From positions 1-61,879 of the IMG/VR virus record IMGVR_UViG_3300047508_000126: a stretch of 61,879 nt of DNA, one strand, 5' to 3'. Under the pieces are notes generated by a model. That model worked only from the letters and a program-made list of their open reading frames with translations. It had not been told where the DNA came from and did not search any database. This DNA comes from a virus. Taxonomy: Duplodnaviria > Caudoviricetes. Each line of letters opens with the position of its first letter. Position 1 is the stretch's first letter. Made by a program: the position numbers and the translations under genes. Shown here one piece after another: positions 1 to 61,879 of this stretch.

Positions 1-40
1 GGGGGTGGCCCCGGCCCCCCCCGGCCGGGGGGGGCGGGGG

Positions 41-158
41 GGGGGGGCCCGACGGCCGTCCCCGCCGGCTGCGTAACACGGCGAGGCCGCAGCCAGCGGG
101 GAACGAACAAGGCAGCCGCGAACAAGACGACGACGATGAGACCCAGCACGCCGGCCAT
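41..158 (-). CDS. 5' part of a small membrane protein that probably continues across the circular junction into 61879..61759
   Basis: ATG at 158 overlaps the stop of the upstream gene; reads MAGVLGLIVVVLFAAALFVPRWLRPRRVTQPAGTAVGPP (one TM helix) and is in frame with the window end. Confidence 0.6.
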
Positions 159-586
159 CAGGCACCATCCAGGAACCCGGCCGGCGACCGCAGCGGCCGG
201 TAGTCGAACAGCATCGGGAACCGGTGGTGCTCAGTCCGCAGGATGTGGGGGCGGAGCCGGCGGACGGTGTACGGGGCGAAATCCGTCACAGGGGCCCAGT
301 GCGCGGTCCAGTCGTCATCCATGGCCTCCACCAGGAGCCATGGGACATCCGTGCCCTCGTCGTCCCACCCGATGACCGTGTACCGTTCGGCCTCGTCGTT
401 GTCTTCCTCAGCGCGCAGGCACACATGCGCGCTGGGGCCGTACCAGCGACGGGTAGTGCGCAGCCGCCAGCCGCGGCGGGTGATCTCGTACTGGCCGGTG
501 AACCAGTCCTGGACGCCGGACAGGACGCCTCCGGCGAGCAGGCAGGCCAGGAGTCCCCAGCCAAGATTCGAGGTGGTGATGTTCAT
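158..586 (-). CDS. hypothetical protein with N-terminal TM segment
   Basis: 142-aa ORF with start/stop overlaps on both sides. Confidence 0.65.
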   Translation of the reverse strand: MNITTSNLGWGLLACLLAGGVLSGVQDWFTGQYEITRRGWRLRTTRRWYGPSAHVCLRAEEDNDEAERYTVIGWDDEGTDVPWLLVEAMDDDWTAHWAPVTDFAPYTVRRLRPHILRTEHHRFPMLFDYRPLRSPAGFLDGA

Positions 587-897
587 GCTGCGGCCTTCCG
601 GGGCTGCGGGATGGGTGATGGCGGGCGCTTCAGGCGGCGGCGTTCACGCTCGGACATGCCACCCCAGATCCCGAATTTCTGGTCGGTCTTCAGGGCGTAT
701 CCCAGGCACTCGAGCCGGACCTCGCAAGCACGGCAGATCCGCTTGGCTGCGCCGGTCGAGCCGCCCTTCTCCGGGAACCACGCTTCGGGATCGGCTTGGC
801 TGCAGAGCGCCTTGTCCTGCCACGTCAGGTCTTCGGGTGCGGCGGCCGGCTCGACGGCGAACTCCCGCAGGTAGGAACTGACGGCGTAAGGGTTCAT
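583..897 (-). CDS. whiB: WhiB-family Fe-S transcription regulator
   Basis: WQDKALCSQADPEAWFPEKGGS-AKRICRACEVRLECLGYAL-FGIWGGMSERERRRL: four Cys plus G(I/V)WGG turn; start placed at ATG 897. Confidence 0.95.
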   Translation of the reverse strand: MNPYAVSSYLREFAVEPAAAPEDLTWQDKALCSQADPEAWFPEKGGSTGAAKRICRACEVRLECLGYALKTDQKFGIWGGMSERERRRLKRPPSPIPQPRKAAA

Positions 898-1097
898 GCT
901 GCCGCTTCCTTGATGAGCGCGCCGTACACCAGCGCTAGCCCGAACCACTCCGGCGACCCCGACGGGAACGCCCGCACCGACGGCTCCAGCCCGTCGTCGA
1001 GCCACTTCCGGGCGCGGTCCTTCCGGCCGACCCGGATCGCGATGGCAGCCTGGTAGCCGTAGTCGAGGGCGTCGGTGAGGGCGGCCATGTCGGTCAC
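894..1097 (-). CDS. hypothetical protein
   Basis: 67-aa ORF with overlapping start/stop junctions. Confidence 0.6.
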   Translation of the reverse strand: MTDMAALTDALDYGYQAAIAIRVGRKDRARKWLDDGLEPSVRAFPSGSPEWFGLALVYGALIKEAAA

Positions 1098-1279
1098 CGC
1101 CGGGCCTGGGCGGCGCGCTCGTCCGCACGCCCCGCCTCGTAGAAGATGGCCAGCTCGGTGAGGGTCACGGTGAACGTGTCCTGGGTGGGCGTGTCGGGCA
1201 CCAGCTGAATGACAGCGGTGCGTGTTACCTTGGGCATGCAGCAGCCGTCCCTTTGGGTGGCTGAGGATCGCAACGGCAT
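1094..1279 (-). CDS. hypothetical protein
   Basis: AAGGAAGG RBS upstream of ATG 1279; stop overlaps next gene. Confidence 0.5.
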   Translation of the reverse strand: MPLRSSATQRDGCCMPKVTRTAVIQLVPDTPTQDTFTVTLTELAIFYEAGRADERAAQARR

Positions 1280-1332
1280 TGACTTCGTGTCCTTCCTTGC
1301 CGGGTGGAAACAGGTCGAGCTTTGCGGGTGGA

Positions 1333-1367
1333 GACGGGATCCGCGTTCGTGGCGCGGGTCCCGTTTT
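1333..1367 (+). terminator. intrinsic terminator-like hairpin
   Basis: ACGGGATCCGCG-loop-CGCGGGTCCCGT followed by TTT. Confidence 0.55.
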
Positions 1368-1385
1368 CGTCGTTCCAGGTGAGCG

Positions 1386-1556
1386 TCATGACGGGGTGTC
1401 CCCCGTGCGGCCGGTGTCGGGCTCGAGGATCAGGTAGATGCCGTCGGGCCGCTGGATGCGTTCGGCGCCCCTGAGCGGGCCCATGCCTTTGCCGATGTAG
1501 ATCTGCGCGTCCATCGGCTCGTCGAGAAGCGCCTGGATGAGTTCGCGGACTGTCAT
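1386..1556 (-). CDS. hypothetical protein
   Basis: MTVRELIQALLDEPMDAQIYIG..., ATGA overlap with the bldC-like gene. Confidence 0.65.
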   Translation of the reverse strand: MTVRELIQALLDEPMDAQIYIGKGMGPLRGAERIQRPDGIYLILEPDTGRTGDTPS

Positions 1557-1741
1557 GCTGCTACCTCTGCGCGGTCGGCGATCAGGGCGCGGATCTCGGA
1601 CTCGCGGTACCGGCGGTGACCGCCGAGGGTCCGCTGCGTGTTGAGCTTCCCCTCGCGGGCCCACCGGGCAACCGTGTGAGGGTGAACCTTGAGGATGGCC
1701 GCAACCTCAGCGGTCAGGAGCCATCTGCTTGGTGCGTCCAC
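1553..1741 (-). CDS. bldC: BldC-like (MerR/Xis-type) HTH DNA-binding protein
   Basis: LLTAEVAAILKVHPHTVARWAREGKLNTQRTLGGHRRYRESEIRAL closely resembles Streptomyces BldC, including the RTLGGHRRY motif. Confidence 0.85.
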   Translation of the reverse strand: MDAPSRWLLTAEVAAILKVHPHTVARWAREGKLNTQRTLGGHRRYRESEIRALIADRAEVAA

Positions 1742-1773
1742 AGTGTCCGTCCTGGGGTAGTCGGGTGGTTCGT

Positions 1774-1869
1774 CCGTCTAGTCAGTAGACGGTAACCGCC
1801 GACGCGCCAGCCGTCAAGTGGCTAGACGGTCCAGGGGGGACTGTACGGTACCGTCTAGGGGCTATACGC
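1774..1869. promoter_or_regulatory. divergent promoter region with three 19-bp operators (CCGTCTA-N5-TAGACGG)
   Basis: operators at 1774-1792, 1811-1829, 1851-1869; leftward TTGACG(1817-1812)-17bp-TACCGT(1794-1789). Confidence 0.8.
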
Positions 1870-2154
1870 TTGAAGACCGTGAACCAGGACAGCGGCGCGG
1901 GCGAAGAGCTCAACGCGCTATCGCGGGCGCTCGACCGCATCGAAGCCATGCCCGGCTCGCACGCCAAGACAGCAGCGATCCGCGACGCGGCCGTAGGGCT
2001 CGAGAAGCTCAGCGGCAGGGCGGCGGAGATCAGGAGGGCTGAGGTGCTGCGGCTACGCGACAAAGAGCAGCTCGCGCTCGCCCCGCTCGCGGAGCGGGTC
2101 GGCATGTCCAAGGCCCGCGCCGGCCAGATCGTCAAGGAGGCACGCAATGGGTGA
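1870..2154 (+). CDS. HTH repressor-like protein, candidate regulator of the leftward transfer genes
   Basis: C-terminal HTH LAPLAERVGMSKARAGQIVK; divergent from the bldC-like gene across the operator triplet (start may be GTG 1879). Confidence 0.7.
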   Translation: MKTVNQDSGAGEELNALSRALDRIEAMPGSHAKTAAIRDAAVGLEKLSGRAAEIRRAEVLRLRDKEQLALAPLAERVGMSKARAGQIVKEARNG

Positions 2155-2707
2155 GCTGATGACCGTGACCGTGGAAGTGTGGCCGGTGGCCGCCGATGAG
2201 GCGGGCATCTGGCTGGTCAGCGGCCGCGACGCCTGGCGGTTCGGCCCGGTCGAGGCGGCCAGCGACGTGCACTACGAGATCGAGCTGCTGCTGTTCCAGC
2301 ACGGCATCGACCCCGGCGACGCGGTTTTCCTCAAGCTTGCCCCCAGGGCACCGCGGGCGGAAGTGATCCACATGACGTCGGGGCGGCCGCAGGGCCCGAC
2401 GTACGTGCTGACCTACATGGCCGTCGTGGATGTTCCCGGCTACGTGCTGGAGACCTGGCCGGACGCCGCGCCCATCACCGCCGCGCTACCCGCGGCGGTC
2501 GGGAAGGCCCCGCCGCACGGAGCGGCTGAGGTGCCGGTGCCGAGGTGGGTTGACGTCCCTCTCCACGGGCTGCGGCACCTGAAGTTCCTTGCCGGCCCGG
2601 GCGGGGACGCTGAGACGGCGGCGGCGCTGGACGCGAACTGGCGGAGGCACCTGGCCCCGCTCGAGCCCGCGCTGTTCACGATGTTCAGCGAGCGGCTCGC
2701 CGGATGA
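2147..2707 (+). CDS. hypothetical protein, possibly degenerate NUDIX-like fold
   Basis: 186-aa ORF coupled to the HTH gene; no canonical Nudix box, so the fold call is weak. Confidence 0.55.
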   Translation: MGELMTVTVEVWPVAADEAGIWLVSGRDAWRFGPVEAASDVHYEIELLLFQHGIDPGDAVFLKLAPRAPRAEVIHMTSGRPQGPTYVLTYMAVVDVPGYVLETWPDAAPITAALPAAVGKAPPHGAAEVPVPRWVDVPLHGLRHLKFLAGPGGDAETAAALDANWRRHLAPLEPALFTMFSERLAG

Positions 2708-2853
2708 GCGGCTACCCGGAGGACTACCTCAAGGCCATCGAGCGCTGGCTGAACGAGGCGGCTGCGGACCTGCTGCCGGAGGGATACCGGCTCGAGTGGC
2801 GCGACACGCCGGCTACGGCAGAGCAGCCCGATCCGGGGCCGGCTGCGCAATGA
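2704..2853 (+). CDS. small hypothetical protein (49 aa)
   Basis: ATGA overlap; MSGYPEDYLKAIERWLNEAAADLLPEGYRLEWRD... Confidence 0.55.
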   Translation: MSGYPEDYLKAIERWLNEAAADLLPEGYRLEWRDTPATAEQPDPGPAAQ

Positions 2854-2895
2854 TGGACGCGACACCCTCAGGAGGCATGTCGTGACCTAGACATG

Positions 2896-2920
2896 AAAAT
2901 GGCCCGCCTATAGCGGGCCA
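2896..2920 (-). terminator. terminator-like hairpin
   Basis: TGGCCCGC-CTATA-GCGGGCCA preceded by AAAA (U-tract on the minus strand). Confidence 0.6.
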
Positions 2921-3383
2921 CGCTCACAATTCCATCCACCAGATCCGCGCTCACCGGCGACCAACCAAGTGCGCGGGCCCTACGTCAACCGAGGCAAACA
3001 TTACACGTTGCCGTCCGGTCTGCCTAGCACTGCCTGTTTCCCCCGGCGTGTCGCCAGGCCGCTCCCCACCTTGAGCCGTCCACGCTCAACTCAGCAGTCC
3101 TGTCAAGCAGGGCGGCGAGGGACGGCTAGAAGGCACACCGCACTATGGCGTGACCTCCCGTGCTCCGGCTGCCTCCGAGTTAGTGGCTTAAGCCTGGGAA
3201 ATCAGGCGTACCGCGGGGACATCCTCCGGTGGGTAATGGCGACGGGCACGGGCTCAGGCCCCTCATGATCTCTTGGGGGGTGAGGGGGGGCGTGCCCGGA
3301 GCCTTGGGAAAAAGCATCAGGACCGTAACGCGCGCGAGGAAAAAATGGTGGCCGCCGACAGCCCTGCCGGCGGCCACCACGCA

Positions 3384-3524
3384 TCAGATGCTGTCGCGGT
3401 CGTCGGACTGGTGCGCCTCTGCGGCTTCCTCTGCGGCCGCCTCGCCGACGAGGGTGATGAGCTCGGCCTGTTCGGCGGGTGGCAGGGTGCGGAAGATGTC
3501 TTTCAGGGTTACGTCGTAGTACAT
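3384..3524 (-). CDS. small acidic protein (46 aa)
   Basis: MYYDVTLKDIFRTLPPAEQAELITLVGE...; TGATG overlap with the upstream peptide gene. Confidence 0.55.
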   Translation of the reverse strand: MYYDVTLKDIFRTLPPAEQAELITLVGEAAAEEAAEAHQSDDRDSI

Positions 3525-3655
3525 CAGCCGTGGTACCAGGTGGTGGGGGCGCCGGCGTTGATGCTGCCGCCTGTGGTGGCGGATGCGGCGGCTCCGGCTC
3601 CCAGGAGGGCTGCGGCGGCGAGGGCGATTGCGGCGATCTTGCGACGTGCAGACAT
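3524..3655 (-). CDS. small secreted peptide (43 aa)
   Basis: MSARRKIAAIALAAAALLGAGAAASA is a Sec-type signal ending in an AxA site, followed by TTGGSINAGAPTTWYHG; GAGGA RBS upstream. Confidence 0.7.
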   Translation of the reverse strand: MSARRKIAAIALAAAALLGAGAAASATTGGSINAGAPTTWYHG

Positions 3656-3738
3656 TGAACGGGTCCTCTCTGTGACGGCGCTTGGCCTGACCGTAACACG
3701 CCATTGCGTGTCTGTCACCATGCGGTTACGCTCGGCTA

Positions 3739-4041
3739 ATGCATGAGTCACTTAACCGGCTCCGCGATCCGGACCTCGACCTCACCTCGGTGCTCTGCCA
3801 GCTGATCCTCGACATCCGCCGCATCCTCATCCACCCGGACCTCCAGAACCACGTGAAGCTGTCCGCGATCCAGACGGCGGTTGATGAGCTCGCACCGCCG
3901 CCGCCGGTACCGGATCCCTCAACGTCCCGCCGGCCGCCCCTGGCAGGCACCCGCCTGCCCGGCACCGTTGTCCCCTATGGCGGCCGGCGGGCTACTGGGC
4001 ACGGCCCGCCACCGGGCCTACCTGGTGCTACCGTGACCTGA
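3739..4041 (+). CDS. hypothetical protein
   Basis: 100-aa ORF divergent from the peptide gene. Confidence 0.5.
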   Translation: MHESLNRLRDPDLDLTSVLCQLILDIRRILIHPDLQNHVKLSAIQTAVDELAPPPPVPDPSTSRRPPLAGTRLPGTVVPYGGRRATGHGPPPGLPGATVT

Positions 4042-4134
4042 CCGGGTTCCGTCCCATCCGTGACGACGGGTGACGCCGCCGGATGCCGTGGCGCGGCTAG
4101 ACAGCGCCTCCAGTCCTAGATGGAGGCATGTCTC

Positions 4135-4491
4135 ATGCAGATTCTCGAAACGCTCTTCCCTGACTTCGAGCCGGAATACCGTACCCGCGTGTACTTCGGG
4201 CTCGGCCACGACATTGAACGAGTCAAGATCGGCATCACTGGCCGCGAGAACGGGCACCGCGGCGGCGAGATGCATTTCGATGAGCTCGCTTGCATCCCCG
4301 GCGACAGGCTGATCGAGCGGCGGTACCACAGGAAGTACGCAGCGGAGCGCATCGGGACGACGGAGTGGTTCAAGCTGTCTGACCGGCTGCTCATAGACCT
4401 GATCGTCATGTGCGTCCAGCAAGGGCGTCACGGGTCAACCGAGATCCTGAAGGGTATTATGCTCGCCCGGCTGCGGCAGGCGGCAGCGTGA
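4135..4491 (+). CDS. T5orf172/Mug113-type GIY-YIG-like protein
   Basis: VYF...VKIGIT...E..H..Y..ER...EWF signature; GGAGG RBS. Confidence 0.75.
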   Translation: MQILETLFPDFEPEYRTRVYFGLGHDIERVKIGITGRENGHRGGEMHFDELACIPGDRLIERRYHRKYAAERIGTTEWFKLSDRLLIDLIVMCVQQGRHGSTEILKGIMLARLRQAAA

Positions 4492-4968: not shown

Positions 4969-5814
4969 TCACGGGCCGCCTGGGCACCCGGACGGGGTGT
5001 ACGACGGTGACGGATCGGTGCTGTGGTGCGGGCTCGGGGTGTCCGTGTATGACGGGGACGGGCTGCTGCCTGCGGCCGGGGGTGACGGGGTGTCCGTGGC
5101 CGCCGGGTCCGGTGCCGGGGCGGGCGTGTCCTGCCCGGCTGTCGCGGACGGCGACGGCTGGCCGTTCCCGTTCCCGTTCCCGTTCCCGTTCCCGTTGCCG
5201 GGCGGTGCGGAGGACTTCTTAGCCTGACCGGGCGGCGTGGGCTTCCCGGCCTGACCGGGCGGCGACGGGTTCCCGTTCCCGTTGCCGTTGTACGCCTGCG
5301 CCACGACGGACGACCCCTGATGCTGCCCCGGGGTATGAACGCGGAGCTCGGCGGTGTGCATCGCCGGGAGCGTCGCCACCACCAGCGCCGCCGCACCCAG
5401 CCCGGTCAGGGCCACCTTGTGACGGAACACGCGGCCCGCGGCGCTGCAGGCGGCCCCCGCTACGCCTACGACCCGCAGGTGCCGGCGGTCACCCGGCCCG
5501 GCGTACGGCGGTGGCGGCGCTGTTTCCTCCGCGATCCGCTGGTCATACCCGGCCCGCCAGCCCTCCGCACGCCCGGCCGCCGTAGCCTGCTCGCCGGCCT
5601 GCTGCTGCGCCTCCAGCAACGCCAGCATCTCCGAGACCCGGCCCTTCAGCAACTGCACCTGCGTGCGGAGCCCGGCCAGCTCCCGCTCCGTCGCCGCAGC
5701 CCTGCTGGCACGCTCCTGCTCGCACTCATCCAGCCGGGCACGCAGCTGCCTGATGACATCCTGCTCGCGGTCCTGCCCATGCCGCTCAACCGGCATATCC
5801 GGCACGACACCCAC
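4969..5814 (-). CDS. membrane protein with N-terminal coiled coil, one TM, Asn-Gly repeats and a Pro/Ser/Thr-rich tail
   Basis: 281-aa ORF downstream of the repressor on the same strand; GTTCCC tandem repeats at ~5164-5196 encode NGNGNG. Confidence 0.7.
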   Translation of the reverse strand: MGVVPDMPVERHGQDREQDVIRQLRARLDECEQERASRAAATERELAGLRTQVQLLKGRVSEMLALLEAQQQAGEQATAAGRAEGWRAGYDQRIAEETAPPPPYAGPGDRRHLRVVGVAGAACSAAGRVFRHKVALTGLGAAALVVATLPAMHTAELRVHTPGQHQGSSVVAQAYNGNGNGNPSPPGQAGKPTPPGQAKKSSAPPGNGNGNGNGNGNGQPSPSATAGQDTPAPAPDPAATDTPSPPAAGSSPSPSYTDTPSPHHSTDPSPSYTPSGCPGGP

Positions 5815-5932: not shown

Positions 5933-6577
5933 CTAGCCCGCTAGCTCTATCGGCGGCGGCGGGCTGGTGTCGCTATTCGGGCGGCGGGGCCTGACCGACC
6001 GCAGTGCGGCGATGGCCAGGACCCGCTGGTCTTCCGGCGTGAGCTCGGTGAGCCATAGATTCCTCTCAAACTTGTCCTCGAAGATCTCACGTTCGGGGAT
6101 GCCATCTTCGCGGCGGGCGGCGATGTAGTCGCGGATCTCCGCGGCGATCTCGGTCAGCCTTACGGCGACTTCCTCGCCCCGGATCCTGGTCATCTCGTCG
6201 GCGATAGCCTGCCCGATGCGGACGGTGAGGGGGTCCGTCGCAGCGGGCGCGGGGAGGATGCCGGCCAGCGTGGGCTCGTCATCCGCCGCGAGAAGATCAG
6301 CCAGGACCGCGGCGGCGTCGGGACGGCACCCCTCCGCCGCGAGCTGGGCGGGTGTCACGCCGGCGGCTCGGGCCATCTTAGCGATCGTCGCGGCCGGCGC
6401 GTTCCTGACCGCCGCGTACTCGCCAGGGCTGACGTTCTGGTAGCCCTTGACGATCTGCCGCCACCGGCCGTAGCTGATGCCCGCGCGGCGTGCCGCCTCG
6501 CGGATGGAGATGTCCAGGAGCCTGGTGGCGGCTTCAATGAGCCTCCCCTCGGGGGGCGGTTCAGGGCGTGTGTCCAT
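5933..6577 (-). CDS. immunity repressor (cI-like, XRE HTH)
   Basis: ISIREAARRAGISYGRWRQIVKG HTH; divergent from the Cro-like gene and lytic operon. Confidence 0.8.
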   Translation of the reverse strand: MDTRPEPPPEGRLIEAATRLLDISIREAARRAGISYGRWRQIVKGYQNVSPGEYAAVRNAPAATIAKMARAAGVTPAQLAAEGCRPDAAAVLADLLAADDEPTLAGILPAPAATDPLTVRIGQAIADEMTRIRGEEVAVRLTEIAAEIRDYIAARREDGIPEREIFEDKFERNLWLTELTPEDQRVLAIAALRSVRPRRPNSDTSPPPPIELAG

Positions 6578-6583
6578 GTCCCT

Positions 6584-6914
6584 ACCTTCACACAGCTTCA
6601 CATGCGTGTCTACTTGTGACAGGAGTCCGCTCACAGTGTGAGCGTACAGTGCCGCGAAGGTGCTGGGAAGGTGCGTGAACACACTAGAGTTGGTCCCGTG
6701 GCGACCACCTGGGCTCACTTCCGCATCAGCGAAGAACTCCGCGACAAGGCGAAGAAGGCAGCTGCCGCCGACCGGCGGAGCCTGTCGAACTGGTTCGCCC
6801 TCACCGTCGAGCGCGCCCTTGAGGAAGCCCCCGAGCCGCAGCCTGACCAGCCCGTGCCGTGAAGGTGCGCGAAGGTGCTTGCGCTTTACGCACCTTCACA
6901 GTAGGGTGCGTGGC
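6584..6914. promoter_or_regulatory. lysis/lysogeny switch region with repeated GAAGGTGC operators and leaderless promoters
   Basis: GAAGGTGC at 6656, 6667, 6861, 6871; 11-bp IR 6859-6869/6889-6899; CGCTCAC-AGT-GTGAGCG at 6628-6644; -10 boxes TAGAGT 6685 and TAGGGT 6902. Confidence 0.7.
6698..6862 (+). CDS. ribbon-helix-helix (Arc-like) DNA-binding protein
   Basis: WAHFRISEELRDKAKKAAAADRRSLSNWFALTVERAL; GTG 7 nt after a TAGAGT -10 box. Confidence 0.75.
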   Translation: MATTWAHFRISEELRDKAKKAAAADRRSLSNWFALTVERALEEAPEPQPDQPVP

Positions 6915-14375: not shown

Positions 14376-14915
14376 GTGCCTGATGCTACCCCCGAGTCCT
14401 GGAAGCCGATCGCCGGCTATGAGGGCTTTTACGAAGTCTCCGATCTCGGCCGAGTCCGCAATGTCCGCACGAGCCGCATCATCGCCCAATGCCTCAGGGG
14501 ATACAGCGGGATTACCGGAAGAGGCGTGGGTTATCTCACCGTCAAGCTATGCCGTGACGGGATAGTCAAGCGCTACAAGGTTCACCGGCTAGTCGGCGAG
14601 GCGTTCATCGGCCCGCTGCCGCCCGGCATGCAGACCCGCCATGGTCCGGGCCGGACGCTCGACAACCGGCTCGTCAACCTCTCCTACGGCACGCCACGTG
14701 AGAACATTCACGACCAGATACGCGATGGTGTGGACACCCGTGGCGGCGCTAACGCGCAGGCGAAGCTCACCAATAAGGCCGTCGCCGCTATCCGCGTCCG
14801 CTATGCGGCGGGTGAACTTCAGGATGCGCTGGCCCGCGAGTTCGGCGTCACCCAGACCACGATAAGTCGTGTGATCCGCGGCGCGAGCTGGACCGTAATC
14901 AGGGGAACGCCGTGA
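14376..14915 (+). CDS. NUMOD4-HNH homing endonuclease
   Basis: ESWKPIAGYEGFYEVSDLGRVR (NUMOD4); VHRLVGEAF...RH...DNRLVNL...EN (HNH); C-terminal HTH. Confidence 0.9.
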   Translation: MPDATPESWKPIAGYEGFYEVSDLGRVRNVRTSRIIAQCLRGYSGITGRGVGYLTVKLCRDGIVKRYKVHRLVGEAFIGPLPPGMQTRHGPGRTLDNRLVNLSYGTPRENIHDQIRDGVDTRGGANAQAKLTNKAVAAIRVRYAAGELQDALAREFGVTQTTISRVIRGASWTVIRGTP

Positions 14916-15676
14916 CCGATCCGTACTACGCCGACGAGCGCGTGACCCTCTACCACGGCGACATGCTGGAAACGCCGATTCCGGCCCTGGCCGATGCATT
15001 CATCGCCGATCCGCCATACTCCCGCGCTGGCGCTCTGCACACCGGCCGCATGAACAGCCAAGCCGACCTAGTCGGCTCCGATCAGTTCTGGCTGCACTGG
15101 TTCAACGCCGCAGCGAAGAGAATCACCGACCGGACTAGGCCCGACGGGCACGGATTCATCTTCACCGACTACCGCACGGTCGCACTGGTCGAACGCGCAT
15201 TCCTGGCCGCTGGCGCGGGCTGGTACGTCTCCCAGTGCCTTGTCTGGGACCGTGAGTCGATCGGCATGGGCTCACCGTTCCGCGCGTCCCACGAACTGAT
15301 CGCTTTCATCCGGGGGCCTAAGTTCGAATGGAAAGGCAAGCGCGACATGGGCAACGTCATCCGCTGCCGCTGGCCGTACCTCGCCCACGAGAACCACGAG
15401 GCGGAGAAGCCGGTGCCGCTACTGGAACGCTTGGCCGAGACGACTCCTGCCGGGGCGCTGATCCTTGACCCCTTCGCCGGGTCGGGGTCAACCCTCGTCG
15501 CGGCGCGGAACCTCGGCCGCCGTGCTCTCGGCGTTGAGCTTGAGGAACGCTATTGCGAGGTCGCCGTGCGGCGTCTCTCGCAGTCAACCCTCGGCGAGAC
15601 CGCCCCAGCGCCGGAGGTGGCCATGCCGGTCACGCCGACCACGTTTGACCTGTTCAATGATGACGATGCCGCATGA
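14912..15676 (+). CDS. DNA N6-adenine/N4-cytosine methyltransferase (beta class)
   Basis: DPPY precedes H.AEKP and ILDPFAGSGST. Confidence 0.92.
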   Translation: MTDPYYADERVTLYHGDMLETPIPALADAFIADPPYSRAGALHTGRMNSQADLVGSDQFWLHWFNAAAKRITDRTRPDGHGFIFTDYRTVALVERAFLAAGAGWYVSQCLVWDRESIGMGSPFRASHELIAFIRGPKFEWKGKRDMGNVIRCRWPYLAHENHEAEKPVPLLERLAETTPAGALILDPFAGSGSTLVAARNLGRRALGVELEERYCEVAVRRLSQSTLGETAPAPEVAMPVTPTTFDLFNDDDAA

Positions 15677-16879: not shown

Positions 16880-17200
16880 AAGCCATGCATGCATAGTCAT
16901 GCATGATCATTAACAGATCATGATCATGATCATGAACGATTCAAGATCACGAACGGTCAAAGCCAGACCGCGACGGCTGACCACCCGCCACGGCTGACCA
17001 CCCGCCGGATGGTCGATGGTCAGCCCAACCACCCCAAGCAGGCATCGCCGCAGGTCAGGCGGGTAGGGGGGCGGGGTCACGACGTCACAGTGTGACCACA
17101 TGACCCACACGGTCATCTCGATATTTACTCGCCGGTAGATTTTCGGGGTGCGAGTAAACTTGACGTGACAGTCCGCGGTTGATCACCGCGGGTTAGGCGG
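16880..17200. other. probable cos/packaging-initiation region
   Basis: non-coding gap between HNH and terminase genes; G-run GGGTAGGGGGGCGGGG at 17061-17076; tandem CGGCTGACCACCCGCC x2; GATC cluster; palindromes. Confidence 0.55.
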
Positions 17201-17881: not shown

Positions 17882-18126
17882 GGACCACGAACCGGGGTCA
17901 GCTCGAGCAGACGCTGAAGGAGCTGCGCCGCCAGGAGCGCATCGGGAAGATCGACGCGGCGGCCGTGCAGGCGGTCCGGTCGATGGCCGCCGCGCTGGAC
18001 GGCGACCCGGTGAACGCGGCGCTGTGGCGGCAGTACCGGGAGGCGCTGAGGGAGCTGACGGCGGATGACGATCACGGCTCCGTCGACTCGGCTCTTGCCG
18101 ACCTGTTCGCCGAAGTGGGCGACTAG
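17878..18126 (+). CDS. terS: terminase small subunit
   Basis: small helical protein directly upstream of and overlapping terL. Confidence 0.7.
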   Translation: MRTTNRGQLEQTLKELRRQERIGKIDAAAVQAVRSMAAALDGDPVNAALWRQYREALRELTADDDHGSVDSALADLFAEVGD

Positions 18127-19651
18127 GCGCACCGGCCGGGAGTCGTTCGGCGGTGAGCTGGCGAAGATCGCGGCCAAGCTCGGGCAGCCGTTCATGCCGT
18201 GGCAGGGTGATGCGGCGATGGTCGGCTGCGAGATCGACGACGAGACTGGCCTTCCGGCGTACCGCAAGGTGATCATCACGGTACCCAGGCAGCAGGGGAA
18301 GACCACGCTGTACGTGTCGTGGCAGCTGGACCGGTGCCTGTCTCCGCGGTGGGCGCAGCCGCAGCGGTCGGTGTTCACCGCGCAGTCGGGTAAGGACGCG
18401 CGGGACAAGTGGATGGACGAGATTTTCCCGCTGATCCGCCGGTCCCGGGCGCTGAAACCGGGTGCGGGCCTGACAGCCCGGATTTACGAGGGCATGGGGA
18501 ACGAGTACATCAAGTTCACGAACGGGTCGCTGATCCGGCTGCTGTCCACCTCGTCATCGTCGGGGCATTCCAAGACGCTGCATCAGGCGGTGCTGGATGA
18601 GATCTGGCATGACCAGGACAGCCGGCGGGAGCAGGGGCTGGGGCCGTCGATGCTGACGATCGCGGATGCGCAGGTGCTGATGTGCTCGACGGCGGGGACG
18701 GACGCGTCGGTGGTCCTGGACCGGTACATGGAGCTGGGCCGGGCGGCTGTGCAGGCGGATTCGGGGAGCGGGATCGCGTATATCGAGTATTCGGCGCCGG
18801 ACGGGTGGGATCCGGCTGATGAGGATTCGTATTTCGGGTTCATGCCGGCGTTGTGCCCGGCTCCGCCGTGCCGCTGCGGCGGGGGGAAGTGGCGGCACAC
18901 GATCACGATGGACGCGATCCGCAGTGAGCGGGCGTCGATGGAGCCGGCGGAGTTCGCGCGGGCGTACGGGAACGTCCCGGACCGGTCGGGGCAGCGGGCG
19001 AGCATGATGTCAGGCGGGTGGGCGGCCCGCGCCGACCCGTCGTCGCAGATCAGCGGGCCGGTGGCGCTGGCGTTCGCGGTGGCGTCGGATGAGTCGCCGT
19101 GGGCGGGTGCCACGTCGATCGCCGTGTCCGGGCGGCGGGCTGACGGGCTGGGGCATGGTGAGCTGACGGAGCCGCCCCGGGCGGGGACGGCGGGGCTGGT
19201 GGACCGGCTGGTGGAGCTGGCCGGCCGGCATGACGCGTGCGTGCTGGTGATGAACGGGGCCGGCGCGGCTGCCGCGTTCGGCAAGGAGCTGCTCGAGCGC
19301 GGGTTCGCGGTGGTGGCGCCGGGGAAGGACCCGCCGCCGGGGAAGCGGCGGCTGCAGGTCGTGGGGGCGCGGGAGTACGCCCAGGGCTGCGGGGCGCTGG
19401 TGCAGGACGTGGGCAACGACCGGTGGCGTCACCTTGGCCAGGAGCCCCTGGATAAGGCTGTGGCGGGTGCGCGGACGCGGCCGCTGGCCGATGCGTGGGC
19501 GTGGTCGTGGCGGGGTGCCAAGGCCGATATAGGCCCGCTCGAGGCGGTCACCCTGGCCCGGCACGGGTTCATGACCCACGGGACGACCCCGCCAGCACCG
19601 TTTTTCGGATCGTGGCGCTTAGGAAGGTCTCACATTGACGTCTGTCACTGA
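18065..19651 (+). CDS. terL: terminase large subunit
   Basis: MPWQ, Walker A VPRQQGKTT, Walker B AVLDE, C-motif STAG, C-terminal DIGPLEAVTLA. Confidence 0.93.
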   Translation: MTITAPSTRLLPTCSPKWATRRTGRESFGGELAKIAAKLGQPFMPWQGDAAMVGCEIDDETGLPAYRKVIITVPRQQGKTTLYVSWQLDRCLSPRWAQPQRSVFTAQSGKDARDKWMDEIFPLIRRSRALKPGAGLTARIYEGMGNEYIKFTNGSLIRLLSTSSSSGHSKTLHQAVLDEIWHDQDSRREQGLGPSMLTIADAQVLMCSTAGTDASVVLDRYMELGRAAVQADSGSGIAYIEYSAPDGWDPADEDSYFGFMPALCPAPPCRCGGGKWRHTITMDAIRSERASMEPAEFARAYGNVPDRSGQRASMMSGGWAARADPSSQISGPVALAFAVASDESPWAGATSIAVSGRRADGLGHGELTEPPRAGTAGLVDRLVELAGRHDACVLVMNGAGAAAAFGKELLERGFAVVAPGKDPPPGKRRLQVVGAREYAQGCGALVQDVGNDRWRHLGQEPLDKAVAGARTRPLADAWAWSWRGAKADIGPLEAVTLARHGFMTHGTTPPAPFFGSWRLGRSHIDVCH

Positions 19652-56773: not shown

Positions 56774-56994
56774 GTCGTGCTCCTGTCTGCGGCGGCCTTG
56801 GCGGGATTTTCGGCGTGGCGGCAGCGGTCCCGCCAGTAATCGGAGTTGCTGGCGCTGACAACTATCGTGCAGGCGAGCAGGATGATCTCGGCTGTCGTGG
56901 CGGCATGGCCGCCGGTTAGCGCTGACACGATTACGCCTGCCATCAGCACCGCCATCACGGCGGTCCGCCAGTACTTCTTTATGAACGGGGTCAT
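56770..56994 (-). CDS. small two-TM membrane protein
   Basis: two hydrophobic helices. Confidence 0.65.
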   Translation of the reverse strand: MTPFIKKYWRTAVMAVLMAGVIVSALTGGHAATTAEIILLACTIVVSASNSDYWRDRCRHAENPAKAAADRSTT

Positions 56995-57884
56995 GTCGTG
57001 CTCCTGCTCTTGGCGCGGCGACGCTGGACGGTACGCACCGACACGTTGTCACGCGCCGCCTCCGCCTCAACCGTCAGTCTCGGCTTCACGGTGACGGGCT
57101 TGTCGCGGGCTGGCGGCGGGGGTGACACGGTGTCGTCCTGCGTGTCGTCCTGCGTGTCGCCGGGCATGTCACCCCCCGTTACCAGCGCAGGCGCGGCGGC
57201 CGGCGGGAACCGGCCGGCGATGGCCTCACCCGGCTTAGTCACCCCATGCCACGTCGCCCACGACATGACACGCACCGCCCGGACCGGATGCCACAGCCAC
57301 CGCGTCATCCCCAGCCTGACAGCATGCTTCTCCAGATCCCCGGTAGCCAGCAGCGCATCCCGGCTCACCCGCCGCGAATGCACCGACCACAGCCACGGCG
57401 ACGACACCGACATCAGCCCGAACGTCACCGCCGCGAACGTCGGCCGCCAATGTGGCGCCATCCAATGCGAGTAGTTCATCACCCCGATGACCAGCGCAAA
57501 CCCGTATGCGGCCAGCCGCAGCCGCAGGGCGCTGTCACCCGCGACCAGGGCGAGGTGCGCCTGCCACGCCAGGTAGACGGCCACGGACTCGAGGGTGACA
57601 GCGACCAGTACCTGACCCGCGAGGGGCCATGGGAGGTGGACGCGGAGGAACGCCATCTGCCCGCAGAACGCGACAGCGTTGACCAGGACGATGGGGACGG
57701 CGGCGAGCCACGGTAGCGACACGGTGAGGGCGGGGCTGCCGCGGCGAGGGTGTCGCCCGCGGCCCGCGTGCACTCGGTTGCCCCGCCTGTCATCCACCAT
57801 ACGGCGTCCGGGGTCGTCCTGCGGCATGGCCGCCGGCGGCCATGGGGGCGTGCCGTTGGCGTGCCCGTTCAACGTCGCCGTCAT
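56991..57884 (-). CDS. Spd-like (DUF2637-type) multi-TM protein with C-terminal HTH-like tail
   Basis: four TM helices, Pro-rich linker, AARDNVSVRTVQRRR; lies downstream of the traB-like gene as spd genes do. Confidence 0.65.
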   Translation of the reverse strand: MTATLNGHANGTPPWPPAAMPQDDPGRRMVDDRRGNRVHAGRGRHPRRGSPALTVSLPWLAAVPIVLVNAVAFCGQMAFLRVHLPWPLAGQVLVAVTLESVAVYLAWQAHLALVAGDSALRLRLAAYGFALVIGVMNYSHWMAPHWRPTFAAVTFGLMSVSSPWLWSVHSRRVSRDALLATGDLEKHAVRLGMTRWLWHPVRAVRVMSWATWHGVTKPGEAIAGRFPPAAAPALVTGGDMPGDTQDDTQDDTVSPPPPARDKPVTVKPRLTVEAEAARDNVSVRTVQRRRAKSRSTT

Positions 57885-58033
57885 GACGGGTCAGCCTTGA
57901 TTACCTCAAATGCCTGAACCTTCCTCATGATCGTCTCGTTCGCGACCCGCATCGCGTCGATCTCGTCGGCATAGACACCGATGATCTTTATGGTCCCGAG
58001 CATCGTCATCTCGAGCACTACGTGCACTGTCAT
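57881..58033 (-). CDS. small hypothetical protein
   Basis: VHVVLE...IIGVYADE.DA; AAGGGG RBS. Confidence 0.55.
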   Translation of the reverse strand: MTVHVVLEMTMLGTIKIIGVYADEIDAMRVANETIMRKVQAFEVIKADPS

Positions 58034-58137
58034 GCGTGTCCCCTTCGTGGCGGGAGTGGTGCCGCCCATCCTGCCCCCCGGCCGTGACGGAGCCGGGTAG
58101 GCCAGCCCTCGTGTCGCACCCGTTCATCGCCGTCCGT

Positions 58138-58264: not shown

Positions 58265-60424
58265 TCACGCTGCGTTGACCTTCTGCCGGGCTTCCCGGGC
58301 CAGCCTGGCATTCCGCGCCTTGATCTCAGCTAGGCCCTGCCGGATGCTCATGCCGGGCACCGGGGCGTACTGACCGTAGCTGACCTGGGTGACATAGCCG
58401 ATCTCGAGCAGGGCGCCGACCTGATCATGGACCCAGCTGCGGCTCCGCCCGGATTCCCGGCTGAGGTCCCTCGGCGTTGCGGGGGAGTCCGCCGCCGCGC
58501 CCTGCAGCGCCTCAGCGAACCGTTCCTCCTGCCCGGCGATCACCTGGGGGAGACGCCTGACGAGCTCCGGGTCGGGGCGGAAATCATCCGGGACGCGGGC
58601 CATCAGGGCGGCACCGTCGGCGGCGATCCTGGCGGCGGCTTCCTGCCCGGTGCCGGCGCCGGGGGCGGGGGAGGGCACGGTCCCGGCGGCCTGCCGCGCC
58701 TCAGCGGCCACCGCCGCCGCGGCGTGCGGGGAGTCCGCGACAGCAGCCTGATACTGGGGGCTGATCGCATGGAACGCGTCGTCGAGGCGGAGCCAGCGGG
58801 TGTCCCACCATTCCTGCCAGGTGACATCCCGGTCCCCGGCCCGGAACGCGGTCTCAGCACCGCAGTACAGCCGCAGCGGCGGCCGGGCGCCGATCAGCGC
58901 CACGTTCTGCGCGGCGACCCGGTAGAACAGGTCGTGGTCCATCTTCGGGGCGCGGACCTGCTCCGGGAACATGTCCGGGCCGTCCTTGATGTAGCAGGTG
59001 CCCTTTTCCTCGAGCCGGGACGCGTCGAGCCGCTGGTACTCGGGGATCACGTAGGCGCCGTGGCGGGCCTCCGCGACCCGGTAGGCGACACGGCACAGCA
59101 GGTTCCCGCGGGTCTGCTCGGTCTGGACCGATTCCTCCAGGGAGCCGTTCTGGGTGTAGACCTCCACGTAGCCTTCCAGGCCGCTGGCAAGGCTGGATAC
59201 CAGGGCGAGCAGCTTCGCGCATTCGCTGTCCCCGTTCGCCGCCGAGGTCAGGCCGTGGGTCTCGTCGATCATCGTGTGCAGCGCGGGGGTGTCCTCGTCG
59301 GCCAGGAGCTGCTCATCACCGGTGTAGGCGTACTTGGCGCGGGCCTTCCCCTCGGCCACGGCCATCCGCAGGTACGTCCGCGCCTCGTCGATCTCGGTGA
59401 TCACGTACTCGGCGCTGGCGGCTTTCAGGACCGGGCGGGCGGACCGGCCGCCCTTCAGGTCAATGAGGATCTGCCGGTCATCCCGGCACCCGGACAGGCC
59501 GGCGAGGCGGACGAGCAGGTGGTTGCTCTTCCCGGTGCGGGTGGCGCCGATGACGAAGCAGTTGACCCGCTGGGAGAGCATCTTCCACGCGCCCGTCTCG
59601 GACTTCCCGATCGGCGCGGCCTCGTGGACGGAGCGGGGGGCGAGGCTCATGTCGTACTCGATGATCTCGCGGAGCGGGTTCTCCTGCTTCAGGAAGATGT
59701 CGACCTCGGACGGGTACCCCTTGACGGGTTCGATGCGGACGAGGCCGATGTCGGCGTGGCCTTCGGCGGCCGATTCGATCAGCGGGAGGGCCTGCCGGAA
59801 GTGCTGCAGCGTATGGAGGCCGGGGATGCCCCTGACCCTGATGCGGAGGGTAACGCCAGACACCTGCGCGTCCTTCGCGAACGAGCCGCCCAGGTTCCAC
59901 CGCCAGCAGTGGGACTGCCACCACGTGTCGGCCTGGGCGATGAGCCGGTCCCGTTTACGCTGCCCCCTAGGGCGTTTGTGCCGCCACCAGAAGAACCCCC
60001 ACGCGGCACCCCCGGCGGCCAGGGTGCTGGCCAGGACGATGCCGGTCACCTCGCCGCTGAGCGGGCCCGCCGTGGAGGCGGCGATGAGCCACAGCACGGC
60101 CCCGATGACGGACAGCCGGGCATACCAGACCTCTGGTTCCCGGTCCCATTTGTGCGGGGCGAAGTAGCAGACGGCGACAGCGAGGATGATCCCGGCGCCG
60201 GCGACGTAGCCAGCGAGATACGCCTGGTAGAACACCAGGCCGGCCAGCCACATGACGGGCGGGATGGCGAGCGGGACGGTGACATGCCCGTTCCGCCGCA
60301 CCCACCGGGCGATCGTCTTGACCGCCGCCTCGGACTCGCGGGGCTTGTCCTGCGGCCACGGCGGCGAGGCCACGGCGGCGGGCGCGTACCCGGACGGGCT
60401 GAGCACGATTTCCTTGCCGGACAT
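58265..60424 (-). CDS. traB: TraB-type FtsK/SpoIIIE conjugative DNA translocase
   Basis: four N-terminal TM helices, Walker A GATRTGKS, LIDLKGG, Walker B MIDE, C-terminal wHTH with GRSRSWV recognition helix. Confidence 0.85.
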   Translation of the reverse strand: MSGKEIVLSPSGYAPAAVASPPWPQDKPRESEAAVKTIARWVRRNGHVTVPLAIPPVMWLAGLVFYQAYLAGYVAGAGIILAVAVCYFAPHKWDREPEVWYARLSVIGAVLWLIAASTAGPLSGEVTGIVLASTLAAGGAAWGFFWWRHKRPRGQRKRDRLIAQADTWWQSHCWRWNLGGSFAKDAQVSGVTLRIRVRGIPGLHTLQHFRQALPLIESAAEGHADIGLVRIEPVKGYPSEVDIFLKQENPLREIIEYDMSLAPRSVHEAAPIGKSETGAWKMLSQRVNCFVIGATRTGKSNHLLVRLAGLSGCRDDRQILIDLKGGRSARPVLKAASAEYVITEIDEARTYLRMAVAEGKARAKYAYTGDEQLLADEDTPALHTMIDETHGLTSAANGDSECAKLLALVSSLASGLEGYVEVYTQNGSLEESVQTEQTRGNLLCRVAYRVAEARHGAYVIPEYQRLDASRLEEKGTCYIKDGPDMFPEQVRAPKMDHDLFYRVAAQNVALIGARPPLRLYCGAETAFRAGDRDVTWQEWWDTRWLRLDDAFHAISPQYQAAVADSPHAAAAVAAEARQAAGTVPSPAPGAGTGQEAAARIAADGAALMARVPDDFRPDPELVRRLPQVIAGQEERFAEALQGAAADSPATPRDLSRESGRSRSWVHDQVGALLEIGYVTQVSYGQYAPVPGMSIRQGLAEIKARNARLAREARQKVNAA

Positions 60425-61297: not shown

Positions 61298-61762
61298 CTA
61301 ACCCCCAGCCCACGTCGAGATACTCGACACGACATGCTGCGCCGGCGCGGCGGTAGCCACGAACAGGTTGTGGGCCGCGCCCGCCGGGGCGAGGGCGAAG
61401 ACAAGCGGGGCGGCCAGCGCAACATAGGCGTACTGCGCTGACGGCGACCAGATCAGCGCCACGATCACGGTGGCAGCCATCGCCAGCGCCGCAAGAGTGA
61501 TCAGCGCCCATCCCAGGCCGCTGCCCGGCGCGGTGGACGCGCCGACAAGACCGAAAGCGCTCTCGATATGGGAGATGACCCACTGGCCGCCGGGGGTGAG
61601 GACCGCGACGGCACCAGCGCAGTACATGCCGATGATCACGAGGCGGTGCAGCCACGGGTGAGTGCCGGACGGCAGGTGGTTCAGGTGGCGGAGCAGCAGC
61701 CAGCACACCCCTGCCGTGACGAGCGCGACACCTGAACCGACCAGGGAAACGATCCCGCTCAC
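61298..61762 (-). CDS. four-TM membrane protein of the transfer region
   Basis: 154-aa hydrophobic ORF coupled to its neighbours. Confidence 0.7.
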   Translation of the reverse strand: MSGIVSLVGSGVALVTAGVCWLLLRHLNHLPSGTHPWLHRLVIIGMYCAGAVAVLTPGGQWVISHIESAFGLVGASTAPGSGLGWALITLAALAMAATVIVALIWSPSAQYAYVALAAPLVFALAPAGAAHNLFVATAAPAQHVVSSISTWAGG

Positions 61763-61879
61763 GGCTTATCCCCGATCTTCAGGCCGTCGTCGTAAGCGAA
61801 CGGGCGGGTCGCCTCATCGCGCGGCGGTGCTGGTACCGTCGTCCCCCCCGCAGCTGGCGGACGCTGCGGGGGGCCGACG
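61759..61879 (-). CDS. 3' part of the gene spanning the circular junction
   Basis: reads VGPPQRPPAAGGTTVPAPPRDEATRPFAYDDGLKIGDKP*, GTGA overlap with the next gene. Confidence 0.55.
   Translation of the reverse strand, partial: VGPPQRPPAAGGTTVPAPPRDEATRPFAYDDGLKIGDKP

Follow-up and report, generated by a model that had tools for sequence, protein, structure and literature searches.

Three conserved palindromic operators between divergent genes form a second, separately addressed control region in a tailed-phage genome with a predicted FtsK/TraB-like operon

Results

Three palindromic sites in a divergent intergenic region

The tailed-phage genome (Duplodnaviria; Caudoviricetes) in IMG/VR record IMGVR_UViG_3300047508_000126, analysed here as the complete virus record of 61,879 bases (the window; 69% G+C), contains a short intergenic region that separates a leftward gene for a 62-residue protein of the BldC/excisionase type from a rightward gene for a 91-residue helix-turn-helix (HTH) protein. 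Within this region lie three 19-bp sites, O1, O2 and O3, each built of two 7-bp arms around a 5-bp spacer (Table 1). An earlier note on this DNA had described the three sites, at 1774, 1811 and 1851, as a second genetic switch, with the first two placed over the -10 and -35 of a leftward promoter and the third abutting the start of a divergent HTH gene. The sequences are exactly as given there, the coordinates of the sites and of the promoter hexamers confirm the overlap, and O3 ends at 1869, with a TTG codon following at once (1870) and the GTG at 1879 only 10 nt away.

A search of both strands of the window for CCGTCTA-N5-TAGACGG with up to two mismatches returned exactly these three sites, against a mean of 0.11 matches in shuffled sequence, and none of 100 shuffles reached three. 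At up to three mismatches there are five matches where 2.01 are expected, a number that 6 of the 100 shuffles reach, and the count alone is then not significant. The strength of the signal is the cluster of sites with zero, one and two mismatches inside 96 bp, a span that also holds four of the 12 exact half-sites of the window. When other spacers between the two arms (0 to 12 bp) were allowed at up to two mismatches, only two matches were found, both with a 1-bp spacer (8568 and 23562), and the left edge of O3 takes part in an inverted pair, TGTACGG-N2-CCGTCTA, that has two mismatches. No further copy of the operator was found elsewhere in the window or elsewhere in the related loci described below; the regulon is therefore this one locus.

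The sites are laid over two predicted divergent promoters. The sequence of the leftward one, P_L (TTGACG-17-TACCGT), has a single match in the window, and not one of 100 shuffles contains it. Its -35 hexamer is the left half of O2, its -10 overlaps the right end of O1, and the one departure of O2 from symmetry, an A for a T, is the base that creates TTGACG on the minus strand. Actinobacterial -10 elements are of a looser TANNNT type, the only type with which the -10 of P_L is compatible, and we infer that P_L works as a promoter of this kind. In the rightward direction a putative promoter, P_R, can be drawn from the 8-mer CTGTACGG, a candidate -35 or an extra half-site, and from TACGCT as a candidate -10; O3 overlaps the -10-like TATACG/TACGCT of this promoter. 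The arrangement suggests that the mRNA of the rightward regulator is leaderless or nearly so, because neither of its possible start codons leaves room for a ribosome-binding leader after a -10 situated inside O3.

Conservation of the sites and of their spacing

A homologue search with the 94-aa form of the rightward open reading frame (ORF) gave 82 homologues at E ≤ 0.01 among 100 candidates, almost all of them metagenomic. Protein-pattern scans of IMG/VR viral contigs and of species-representative genomes returned no relatives, and scans of viral contigs and genome contigs with the exact O1 pattern returned none; a scan of metagenome contigs, the sole source of relatives, yielded 14 related loci. 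O1 and O2 are both present in 11 sequences (the window and ten loci), which reduce to nine distinct ones, as L002 and L005 are identical here and so are L006 and L007. O3 is also present in all nine. L003 starts inside the region and shows O3 only, and L015 comes without upstream DNA.

Across the nine distinct sequences, mean column identity is 0.99 for O1, 0.96 for O2 and 0.97 for O3. It is 0.82 between O1 and O2, 0.83 between O2 and CTGTACGG, 0.44 at positions 1849-1850, and 0.69 in the 5' region of the left gene, while CTGTACGG itself, just left of O3, reaches 0.97 and is altered only in L011. Eighteen of the 19 columns of O1 are invariant, as are the CGTCAAG of O2 (nine of nine) and, among the relatives, both hexamers of P_L. 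Even the departures from palindromic symmetry are conserved: the A of O2 that belongs to the -35 is invariant, as is most of the TATACGC arm of O3, and these departures coincide with promoter hexamers (TTGACG in O2, TATACG/TACGCT in O3). The three-site cluster is a genuine, conserved regulatory element.

The spacing of the sites is fixed in two places and loose in a third. O1 and O2 are 37 bp apart in 11 of 11 sequences and the start of O3 lies 28 nt from the GTG start in 12 of 12, whereas the distance between O2 and O3 may be 36, 40, 50, 51 or 121 bp. Because the first two distances are fixed and the last one varies, the region is two promoter-operator units set back to back, not one rigid three-site unit. 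In L009 (650-740), an insertion of about 70 bp separates O2 from O3 and leaves the sites themselves unchanged, which shows that the two units tolerate separation.

Two small proteins encoded beside the operators

The gene next to O3 likely starts at GTG 1879 rather than TTG 1870, since many homologues begin there and the two codons between these starts differ non-synonymously among relatives. Of the 78 aligned members of the family, 51 match Sigma70_r4 at E ≤ 0.01 (best E 1.4e-6), and all 78 share an invariant K-A-R-A-x-Q-I in the last helix. An AlphaFold2 (AF2) model of the 91-aa protein, with a predicted local distance difference test score (pLDDT) of 91.7, consists of four helices, a hairpin (7-23, 28-63) and two short helices. 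The VIA aligner places residues 46-91 onto DNA-binding domains of the DeoR, LsrR, SorC, resolvase and Lrp types with Z 6.4-7.2 and a root-mean-square deviation (rmsd) of 1.0-2.5 Å over 43-49 residues; the best fit, to DeoR/LsrR/SorC, has Z 7.2 and rmsd 1.8-2.1 Å over 46-49 residues. No Peptidase_S24 match was found in the protein with Pfam. The earlier note had linked the neighbouring regulator to the Kor/TraR repressors, which are of the GntR family. This link has to be given up: the six frames of the record contain no match to the GntR domain (PF00392) at E ≤ 1, and the 91-aa protein is a sigma-70-region-4-like HTH protein.

The second gene of the rightward unit, overlooked in the earlier note, encodes a protein of 186 residues that has 213 homologues, and in 11 related loci this gene adjoins that of the regulator. 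A Nudix fold is predicted for the protein, and its catalytic box is degenerate: REx2EE is absent from the region of helix 41-51, both in the sequence and in the invariant columns of the family. The best Foldseek matches of its AF2 model (pLDDT 87.9) are AraR (5deq, E 2.3e-3), NadQ and NudC, and VIA-align likewise gives AraR (5dd4, Z 8.7, 135 residues aligned, rmsd 3.4), NrtR (3gz5, Z 8.5) and NadQ (Z 7.4); nearly all of the 50 VIA matches listed are Nudix proteins, among them many Nudix hydrolases at Z of about 7. Within three C-terminal helices (136-178), R143 and H144 are invariant and W165, R167 and H168 nearly so; the helices align to AraR and NrtR only partly, the alignments running to residue 171-174. 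No HTH match was found in this protein with Pfam or NCBIfam. As modelled, it could be either a rival DNA binder or a sensor. A complex prediction for the 91-aa and 186-aa proteins scored 0.00 in a run without controls and speaks neither for nor against binding. For the 49-aa ORF that closes the unit, no homologue was found in the related loci.

The leftward operon and its translocase

The first protein encoded downstream of P_L passes the thresholds of two families, HTH_BldC (NF033787, 79.0 bits, cut-off 77) and excise (TIGR01764, 31.5 bits, cut-off 28.8), and is the single HTH_17 match of the record. The leftward ORFs that follow, at 158..1559, mostly have overlapping stop and start codons. 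At the left end of the record the series runs into an ORF that is cut by the end of the DNA; if the two ends of the record are joined, this ORF continues in frame, uninterrupted by a stop at the join, to 61759, where its stop codon and the start codon of the ORF behind it (61762) overlap. The same order is found uncut in L006 and L007, where one contig and one strand hold the operators and the genes for a BldC-like protein, WhiB, a 151-aa membrane protein, a 312-aa ORF and a 709-aa homologue of the translocase of the window (53% identity over 719 residues). The homologues of the window's 154-aa membrane protein in these two loci lie between the WhiB gene and the TraB-like gene on the same strand. 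The synteny in L006 and L007 and the in-frame end join show the operon to be continuous up to the translocase gene. The record thus reads as a circular permutation in which the leftward promoter faces the FtsK/TraB-like gene, in agreement with the earlier note, according to which this promoter faces the transfer genes.

A simple scan for terminator-like sites on the minus strand found none in 1-1800 or 53000-61879. The hairpin in the gap at 1280-1385 was considered as a terminator and rejected: a minus-strand U-tract is missing, and shuffled sequences fold equally well (z -0.23). Two successive minus-strand ORFs that lie upstream of the translocase gene are preceded by a direct repeat of some 20 bp, CCACTGGGTTTCCTCCGTTA (plus strand; 60821-60839 and 60898-60917), which on the minus strand reads as a duplicated ribosome-binding and start region. 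The cargo of the leftward operon varies among relatives, because L004, in which operators and regulator are the same as in the window, encodes a different large leftward protein (160-2250, 696 aa) that has no detectable similarity to the translocase of the window (tblastn E > 1e-4) and no Pfam match.

The 719-aa protein matches PHROG 31069 (FtsK/SpoIIIE-like, E 6.9e-11) and contains a Walker A motif (GATRTGKS), a Walker B motif (MIDE), hydrophobic stretches at about residues 50-150 and a C-terminal winged-helix-like region with a weak match to HTH_IclR (E 1e-3, residues 643-681). A profile of 32 family members retrieved PDB entry 6o1w, a 'DNA translocase coupling protein', at E 8.4e-5 with the Walker A and B motifs aligned, and FtsK (2iuu) at E 0.18; the single sequence gave no match in the PDB or in NCBIfam. 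The Atlas neighbours of the protein combine PF01580 (FtsK_SpoIIIE) with a winged HTH of the HTH_IclR/MarR type and come from Actinomycetota, and the nearest clusters are mostly viral. PF01580 has been used to define the Tra protein of actinomycete integrative conjugative elements (AICEs) (PMC3218068). A scan for clt-like clusters of 8-mers found none near the translocase gene; it returned coding repeats elsewhere and the second operator set described below. By its sequence, the protein is FtsK/TraB-like, and its membership of the plasmid TraB family is not established.

A second operator set

The motif GAAGGTGC has five of its eight exact copies in the window inside one cluster (Table 1) and none in 1-3000. 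The cluster consists of two pairs of tandem copies and a fifth, inverted copy, which makes a palindrome with the second of these pairs, and it lies between a leftward gene for a 261-aa HTH protein (5933-6718) and rightward genes for a ribbon-helix-helix (RHH)-like protein (6638-6862) and an HTH_3 protein, which lead into the replication and structural genes. It looks like the CI/Cro-type control region of the phage. The earlier note had held the motif of O1 to O3 to be unrelated to the GAAGGTGC sites, and indeed neither motif occurs at the other locus. Its further claim, that conjugation and lysis are governed by separate switches, stands in part: the genome has two separately addressed operator sets, and the control regions they mark are real; the assignment of one to conjugation and the other to lysis is conjectural.

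The phage element

The virion genes lie at 18-42 kb (Table 1). The record further encodes a tyrosine integrase, several small HTH proteins, one WhiB and one DNA methylase (14912-15676), and no tRNA gene was found in it. It is labelled linear, with a CheckV completeness estimate of 57%; because the ORF cut at its ends joins in frame, this label probably understates a near-complete, circularly permuted genome. Both ends (1-60 and 61840-61879) are rich in G/C homopolymers and have no terminal repeat. Megablast of positions 1-4000 against the phage collection returned nothing, and neither at the DNA nor at the protein level was the element found to resemble anything in the phage or plasmid collections. 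The sequencing runs that contain DNA of the window are soil metagenomes only; four DNA runs, one of them probably the source, contain parts of 1-4200, no RNA run is listed for that range, and one homologue of a window gene is labelled at NCBI as a Streptosporangiaceae metagenome-assembled genome. As part of the interpretation set out below, we take the element, with the same moderate confidence, to be a circularly permuted, temperate, siphovirus-like element of roughly 62 kb from soil Actinomycetota.

Other features of the record are given for completeness. At 30570-31000, the 8-mer CAGATCGC recurs at steps of about 54 bp and encodes tandem 18-residue repeats in a large structural gene (tail/fibre region, 29.7-32 kb) that the GC3-based gene list did not resolve. 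Hexanucleotide repeats at 5160-5280, within a minus-strand ORF (4969-5814), encode Gly-Asn runs (GNGNGN...) in a 281-aa protein without a family match. Overlapping CATGATCATGATCATG repeats at 16900-16935 are non-coding, lie about 1 kb upstream of a small ORF and the terminase genes, and could be a packaging or methylase-related site. A glycosyltransferase-family-2 protein (24941-26368) and a SAM-methyltransferase (27408-27941) are unusual cargo between head and tail genes.

Table 1. Positions of operators, promoters and genes in the window.
Feature	Position	Strand	Remarks
O1	1774..1792		CCGTCTAGTCAGTAGACGG = CCGTCTA-GTCAG-TAGACGG; perfect 7-5-7 palindrome, 0 mismatches
O2	1811..1829		CCGTCAAGTGGCTAGACGG = CCGTCAA-GTGGC-TAGACGG; 1 mismatch (A for T)
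O3	1851..1869		CCGTCTAGGGGCTATACGC = CCGTCTA-GGGGC-TATACGC; 2 mismatches
P_L, predicted leftward promoter	1789..1817	minus	-35 TTGACG (1817-1812), 17-nt spacer, -10 TACCGT (1794-1789)
P_R, putative rightward promoter	1841..1870	plus	CTGTACGG (1841-1848) and TACGCT (1865-1870)
91-aa HTH protein, candidate repressor	1879..2154	plus	alternative TTG start at 1870 gives 94 aa
186-aa protein, predicted Nudix fold	2147..2707	plus	start overlaps regulator stop (ATGGGTGA)
49-aa ORF, last of rightward unit	2704..2853	plus	followed by hairpin at 2899-2921
62-aa BldC-family/excisionase-type HTH_17 protein, first leftward gene	1553..1741	minus	HTH_17 E 1.6e-13
57-aa ORF	1386-1559	minus	
61-aa ORF	1094-1279	minus	
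67-aa ORF	894-1097	minus	
WhiB	583-897	minus	PF02467 E 1.4e-24
142-aa ORF	158-586	minus	
Junction ORF	5' part 1..158, 3' part 61879..61759	minus	92 aa if the ends are joined
154-aa membrane protein	61298-61762	minus	homologues in L006 and L007
719-aa FtsK/TraB-like membrane translocase	58265..60424	minus	
62-aa ORF	57881-58069	minus	downstream of translocase gene
297-aa membrane protein	within 56991..58069	minus	DUF2637 E 5.2e-4, 20.4 bits, below the 22.8 cut-off
GAAGGTGC operator set	6656..6897		5 of 8 exact copies in the window
Large terminase	18065-19651		Pfam
Portal	19878-21353		Pfam
Prohead protease	within 18-42 kb virion block		Pfam
Major capsid	22346-23827		Pfam
Tail tube	34610-35089		Pfam
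Tape-measure-sized ORF, 997 aa	within virion-gene region of 18-42 kb		
Tyrosine integrase	50461-51528	minus	PF00589 E 7.4e-30

Discussion

Proposed mechanism

We favour, with moderate confidence, a reading in which the 91-aa protein is a dimeric repressor that would shut P_L through O1 and O2 and limit its own promoter, P_R, through O3. In the proposed mechanism, which is drawn from the anatomy of the locus and from analogy, one subunit of a putative dimer would contact each CCGTCTA half-site, and repressor bound to O1 and O2 would cover the -10 and -35 of P_L. Such occlusion would silence a translationally coupled operon of a BldC/Xis-like protein, small proteins, WhiB, membrane proteins, the translocase and further membrane proteins. 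As O3 overlaps the -10 of P_R, repressor on this weaker site would hold down production of both itself and the cotranscribed Nudix-fold protein, and the grading of the sites (O1 perfect, O2 with one mismatch, O3 with two) would let P_L be shut at a lower level of repressor than P_R. Release of the repressor would lead to expression of the excisionase-type protein, WhiB, the membrane proteins and the translocase, and the operon may then serve excision and a virion-free transfer or spread of DNA. The non-catalytic Nudix-fold protein may be the signal input or an immunity partner, and a ligand that it senses might release the repressor; this role is proposed because actinomycete integrative conjugative elements pair a regulator with a Nudix protein.

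Three considerations favour the 91-aa protein as the binder. It is a confidently modelled HTH protein encoded beside O3; its predicted recognition helix is invariant wherever the operators are invariant; and the half-site TAGACGG (TTGACGG in O2) is -35-like, as a region-4-type HTH would read it.

Several results weigh against this reading. The relatives are close (64-82% identity), so that part of the conservation reflects a short time of divergence, and two more distant loci that were tried, L013 and L014 (38% identity), have another gene order and neither an equivalent palindrome nor the divergent layout. A generic scan for E. coli-type (sigma-70) promoters found no site in 1-4000 and left P_L unflagged. 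The 91-aa protein itself scores below the Sigma70_r4 cut-off (E 1.1e-3, 18.9-19 bits against 24.1), a Foldseek search with its model gave no PDB match at E ≤ 0.001, and its Z of 7.2, reached over some 46 residues, is of a size that this aligner counts as common; it shows an HTH, no more. The neighbouring 186-aa protein best resembles Nudix-type transcription factors, which are themselves palindrome binders. Downstream, the 106-bp gap that contains the hairpin, after the second gene, might stop or process the transcript. At the far end of the operon, the 719-aa protein falls below the FtsK_SpoIIIE cut-off (PF01580, 11.6 bits, E 0.0039, cut-off 24) and found no tblastn match in the plasmid collection (72,556) or the phage collection.

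Alternative readings

The most direct challenge concerns the identity of the binding protein. NrtR, AraR and NadQ occupy palindromic operators as dimers, and the ligands they respond to are sugars or derive from nucleotides; sensor-type Nudix regulators lack the catalytic residues of the Nudix box. The 186-aa protein could act in the same way, with a non-catalytic Nudix domain as the sensor and its C-terminal helices for contact with DNA, as a dimer on the palindromes that is released by a nucleotide-derived ligand, with the 91-aa protein as a second regulator or co-factor. These three regulators are its best structural matches, its Nudix box has lost REx2EE, the C-terminal helices bear the invariant and nearly invariant residues listed above, and its gene, to judge from the related loci, is always cotranscribed beside the operators. 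Yet the chain is shorter than the 214-290 residues of the NrtR, AraR and NadQ proteins listed, the secondary structure of the model contains no wing or complete winged helix, Pfam and NCBIfam recognize no HTH in it, and Z values of 7-8.7 are middling for the aligner, with plain Nudix hydrolases scoring almost as high; we consider this alternative rather unlikely. The layout, with three operators between divergent promoters and a small DNA-binding protein encoded first on each side, also recalls a bistable switch of the CI/Cro kind, in which the 91-aa and BldC/Xis-like proteins would share the operators in opposite orders of preference, or in which they would serve the BldC/Xis-like protein alone, for architectural or excision control. 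That protein passes both the BldC and the excisionase cut-offs and is the only excisionase-type protein in the record. It comes, however, in two divergent forms among the relatives, 37-40% or 66% identical to that of the window and differing in the HTH, beside operators that do not change, while identity in the 91-aa protein holds at 64-80% over the same loci. A three-site unit with lambda-like cooperativity also sits badly with an O2-O3 spacing of 36-121 bp. BldC is described as monomeric and as binding head to tail to direct repeats rich in AT, AATTNNNN(C) (PMC5859096), unlike the three sites here, which are GC-rich inverted repeats. A switch of this design is quite improbable. Least credible of all, and in our view barely worth entertaining, is that the repeats are accidental or serve no regulatory end, as a recombination site, replication iterons or a clt for the translocase. 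The clt loci of Streptomyces plasmids do contain direct and inverted repeats (PMC3583192), and the link of the sites to transcription is made from sequence. Chance, however, is excluded by the shuffles of both sites and promoter, the sites match conserved -35 and -10 hexamers base for base at a fixed distance from the start codon, and they mark the 5' end of the operon, with several kb between them and the translocase gene, whereas described clt loci lie beside or inside tra (PMC3583192).

A different question is what the operon does. The operator reading may be right and the operon nonetheless be an ordinary early or host-takeover operon, which serves lytic growth or the spread of phage DNA within the mycelium and not conjugation, so that the switch would add a further immunity or timing circuit to the lysis-lysogeny decision and no independent third state. 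This we regard as a serious contender, if one that falls somewhat short of an even chance. Genes of the FtsK/SpoIIIE-like and WhiB types are reported from Streptomyces phages that are virulent (PMC13587820) and from phage P1312 of Thermobifida (PMC4569894), and the operon therefore need not mean conjugation. The results on the translocase point the same way: its score below the Pfam cut-off, the plasmid search without a match, the lack of a clt-like cluster nearby and the mostly viral nearest clusters. Against this, the set of a regulator, a Nudix-like protein, an excisionase-type protein, an FtsK-like protein and a tyrosine integrase fits the content of AICEs (PMC2440964), the translocase profile has a conjugative coupling protein (6o1w) as its best relative of solved structure, the plasmid-phage pZL12 offers a precedent with conjugal transfer (via citations in PMC3583192 and PMC4487206), and the operator set is distinct from that of the CI/Cro-like region. 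A bolder version of the repressor reading joins the two control regions of the genome. Here, in a whole family of temperate phages from soil actinobacteria, the CI/Cro-like switch would govern lysis, and an independent second switch, split between an HTH protein and a non-catalytic Nudix sensor, would gate excision and TraB-driven, virion-free spread, leaving the element a choice of dormancy, conjugation-like spread or lysis. We hold this combined scheme to be doubtful, and the existence of three stable states (dormant, transfer and lytic) is put forward as a hypothesis.

The locus is of interest under either reading of the operon. How TraB modules of actinomycetes are switched on is poorly understood even in model plasmids, and the trigger of AICEs is unknown (PMC2440964); tailed phages that carry TraB-type modules have hardly been studied. 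The present locus is a compact and conserved test object of three operators, two promoters and two small candidate proteins from uncharacterised families, and the phage lineage that carries it is known from soil metagenomes alone. Should the Nudix-like protein prove to be the signal input, the locus would also open a way to the ligand that licenses transfer. Should the operon be no more than an early phage operon, one would still have here a clear case of a second immunity region under separate control.

Comparison with known systems

The phage operator OR of lambda is the obvious point of reference for the anatomy. Both have three graded operators between divergent promoters, two on the silenced promoter and the weakest on the regulator's own (for P_R, on putative hexamers), and in both the mRNA of the regulator has little or no leader, as predicted here. 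The candidate of the window, however, lacks the RecA-cleavable C-terminal (S24) domain and consists of four helices only, the variable O2-O3 spacing (36-121 bp among relatives) is not that of one cooperative unit, and a CI/Cro-like region with a motif of its own lies elsewhere in the element. As for the partner protein, the Nudix fold, the degenerate catalytic box and the best structural matches are shared with NrtR, AraR and NadQ, but these combine sensor and winged helix in one chain of about 215-290 residues, where the window has the 186-aa protein and a separate HTH protein encoded just upstream with overlapping codons.

By analogy, the functionally closest known arrangement appears to be the kil-kor system of Streptomyces plasmids, with the repressors TraR, KorA and KorSA (pSVH1, pIJ101 and pSAM2). 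There, too, a repressor gene stands beside a long operon in which genes for small membrane proteins and for an FtsK-like translocase are translationally coupled, repeated sites occupy the intergenic promoter region, and the presumed role is to silence a potentially toxic transfer operon (PMC4447253, PMC2440964). TraR of pSVH1 binds repeats in the traR-spdB3 intergenic region and probably controls a long transcript from spdB3 to traB; traR cannot be deleted, since unregulated TraB is toxic, a toxicity that TraR overrides (PMC4447253). The differences lie in the parts. The kil-kor repressors are GntR-family proteins of about 28 kDa and the candidate here is a 91-aa sigma-r4-like HTH protein; TraR of pSVH1 has direct repeats of 14 bp as its sites, against the 19-bp 7-5-7 palindromes of the window; and the kil-kor elements are plasmids or AICEs, whereas the present element is a full tailed-phage genome. 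A Nudix protein paired with a repressor that keeps a TraB-type integrative element quiescent is found in Pif and KorSA of pSAM2 and in the Nudix/HTH-XRE clusters of pMEA100 and pSE211 (PMC2440964). Pif, however, needs its Nudix motif for immunity, a motif that is degenerate in the window protein.

The gene content of most AICEs includes a regulator, an excisionase, a transfer protein and a Nudix hydrolase (PMC2440964). Of the Int, Rep and Tra proteins that characterize AICEs (PMC3218068), the tyrosine integrase (PF00589) is present in the window; but AICEs are small elements without virion genes, and this one carries genes for terminase, portal, protease, capsid, tail tube and tape measure. 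The plasmid-phage pZL12 likewise joins a tailed-phage genome to a Streptomyces-type transfer gene (PMC3583192, PMC4487206), and its conjugal transfer is cited as needing a major tra gene (PMC3583192; title of Zhong et al. 2010 in the references of PMC4487206). It is a free plasmid with ParAB, where the present element has a tyrosine integrase, and the literature passages covered report no switch of this kind for it. Homologues of SpdB2 on actinophages have been mentioned as well (PMC4447253). Phage-borne TraB-like modules thus have precedent; what is new here is a non-GntR repressor candidate that, with a Nudix-like partner, would guard a transfer or spread operon inside a phage.

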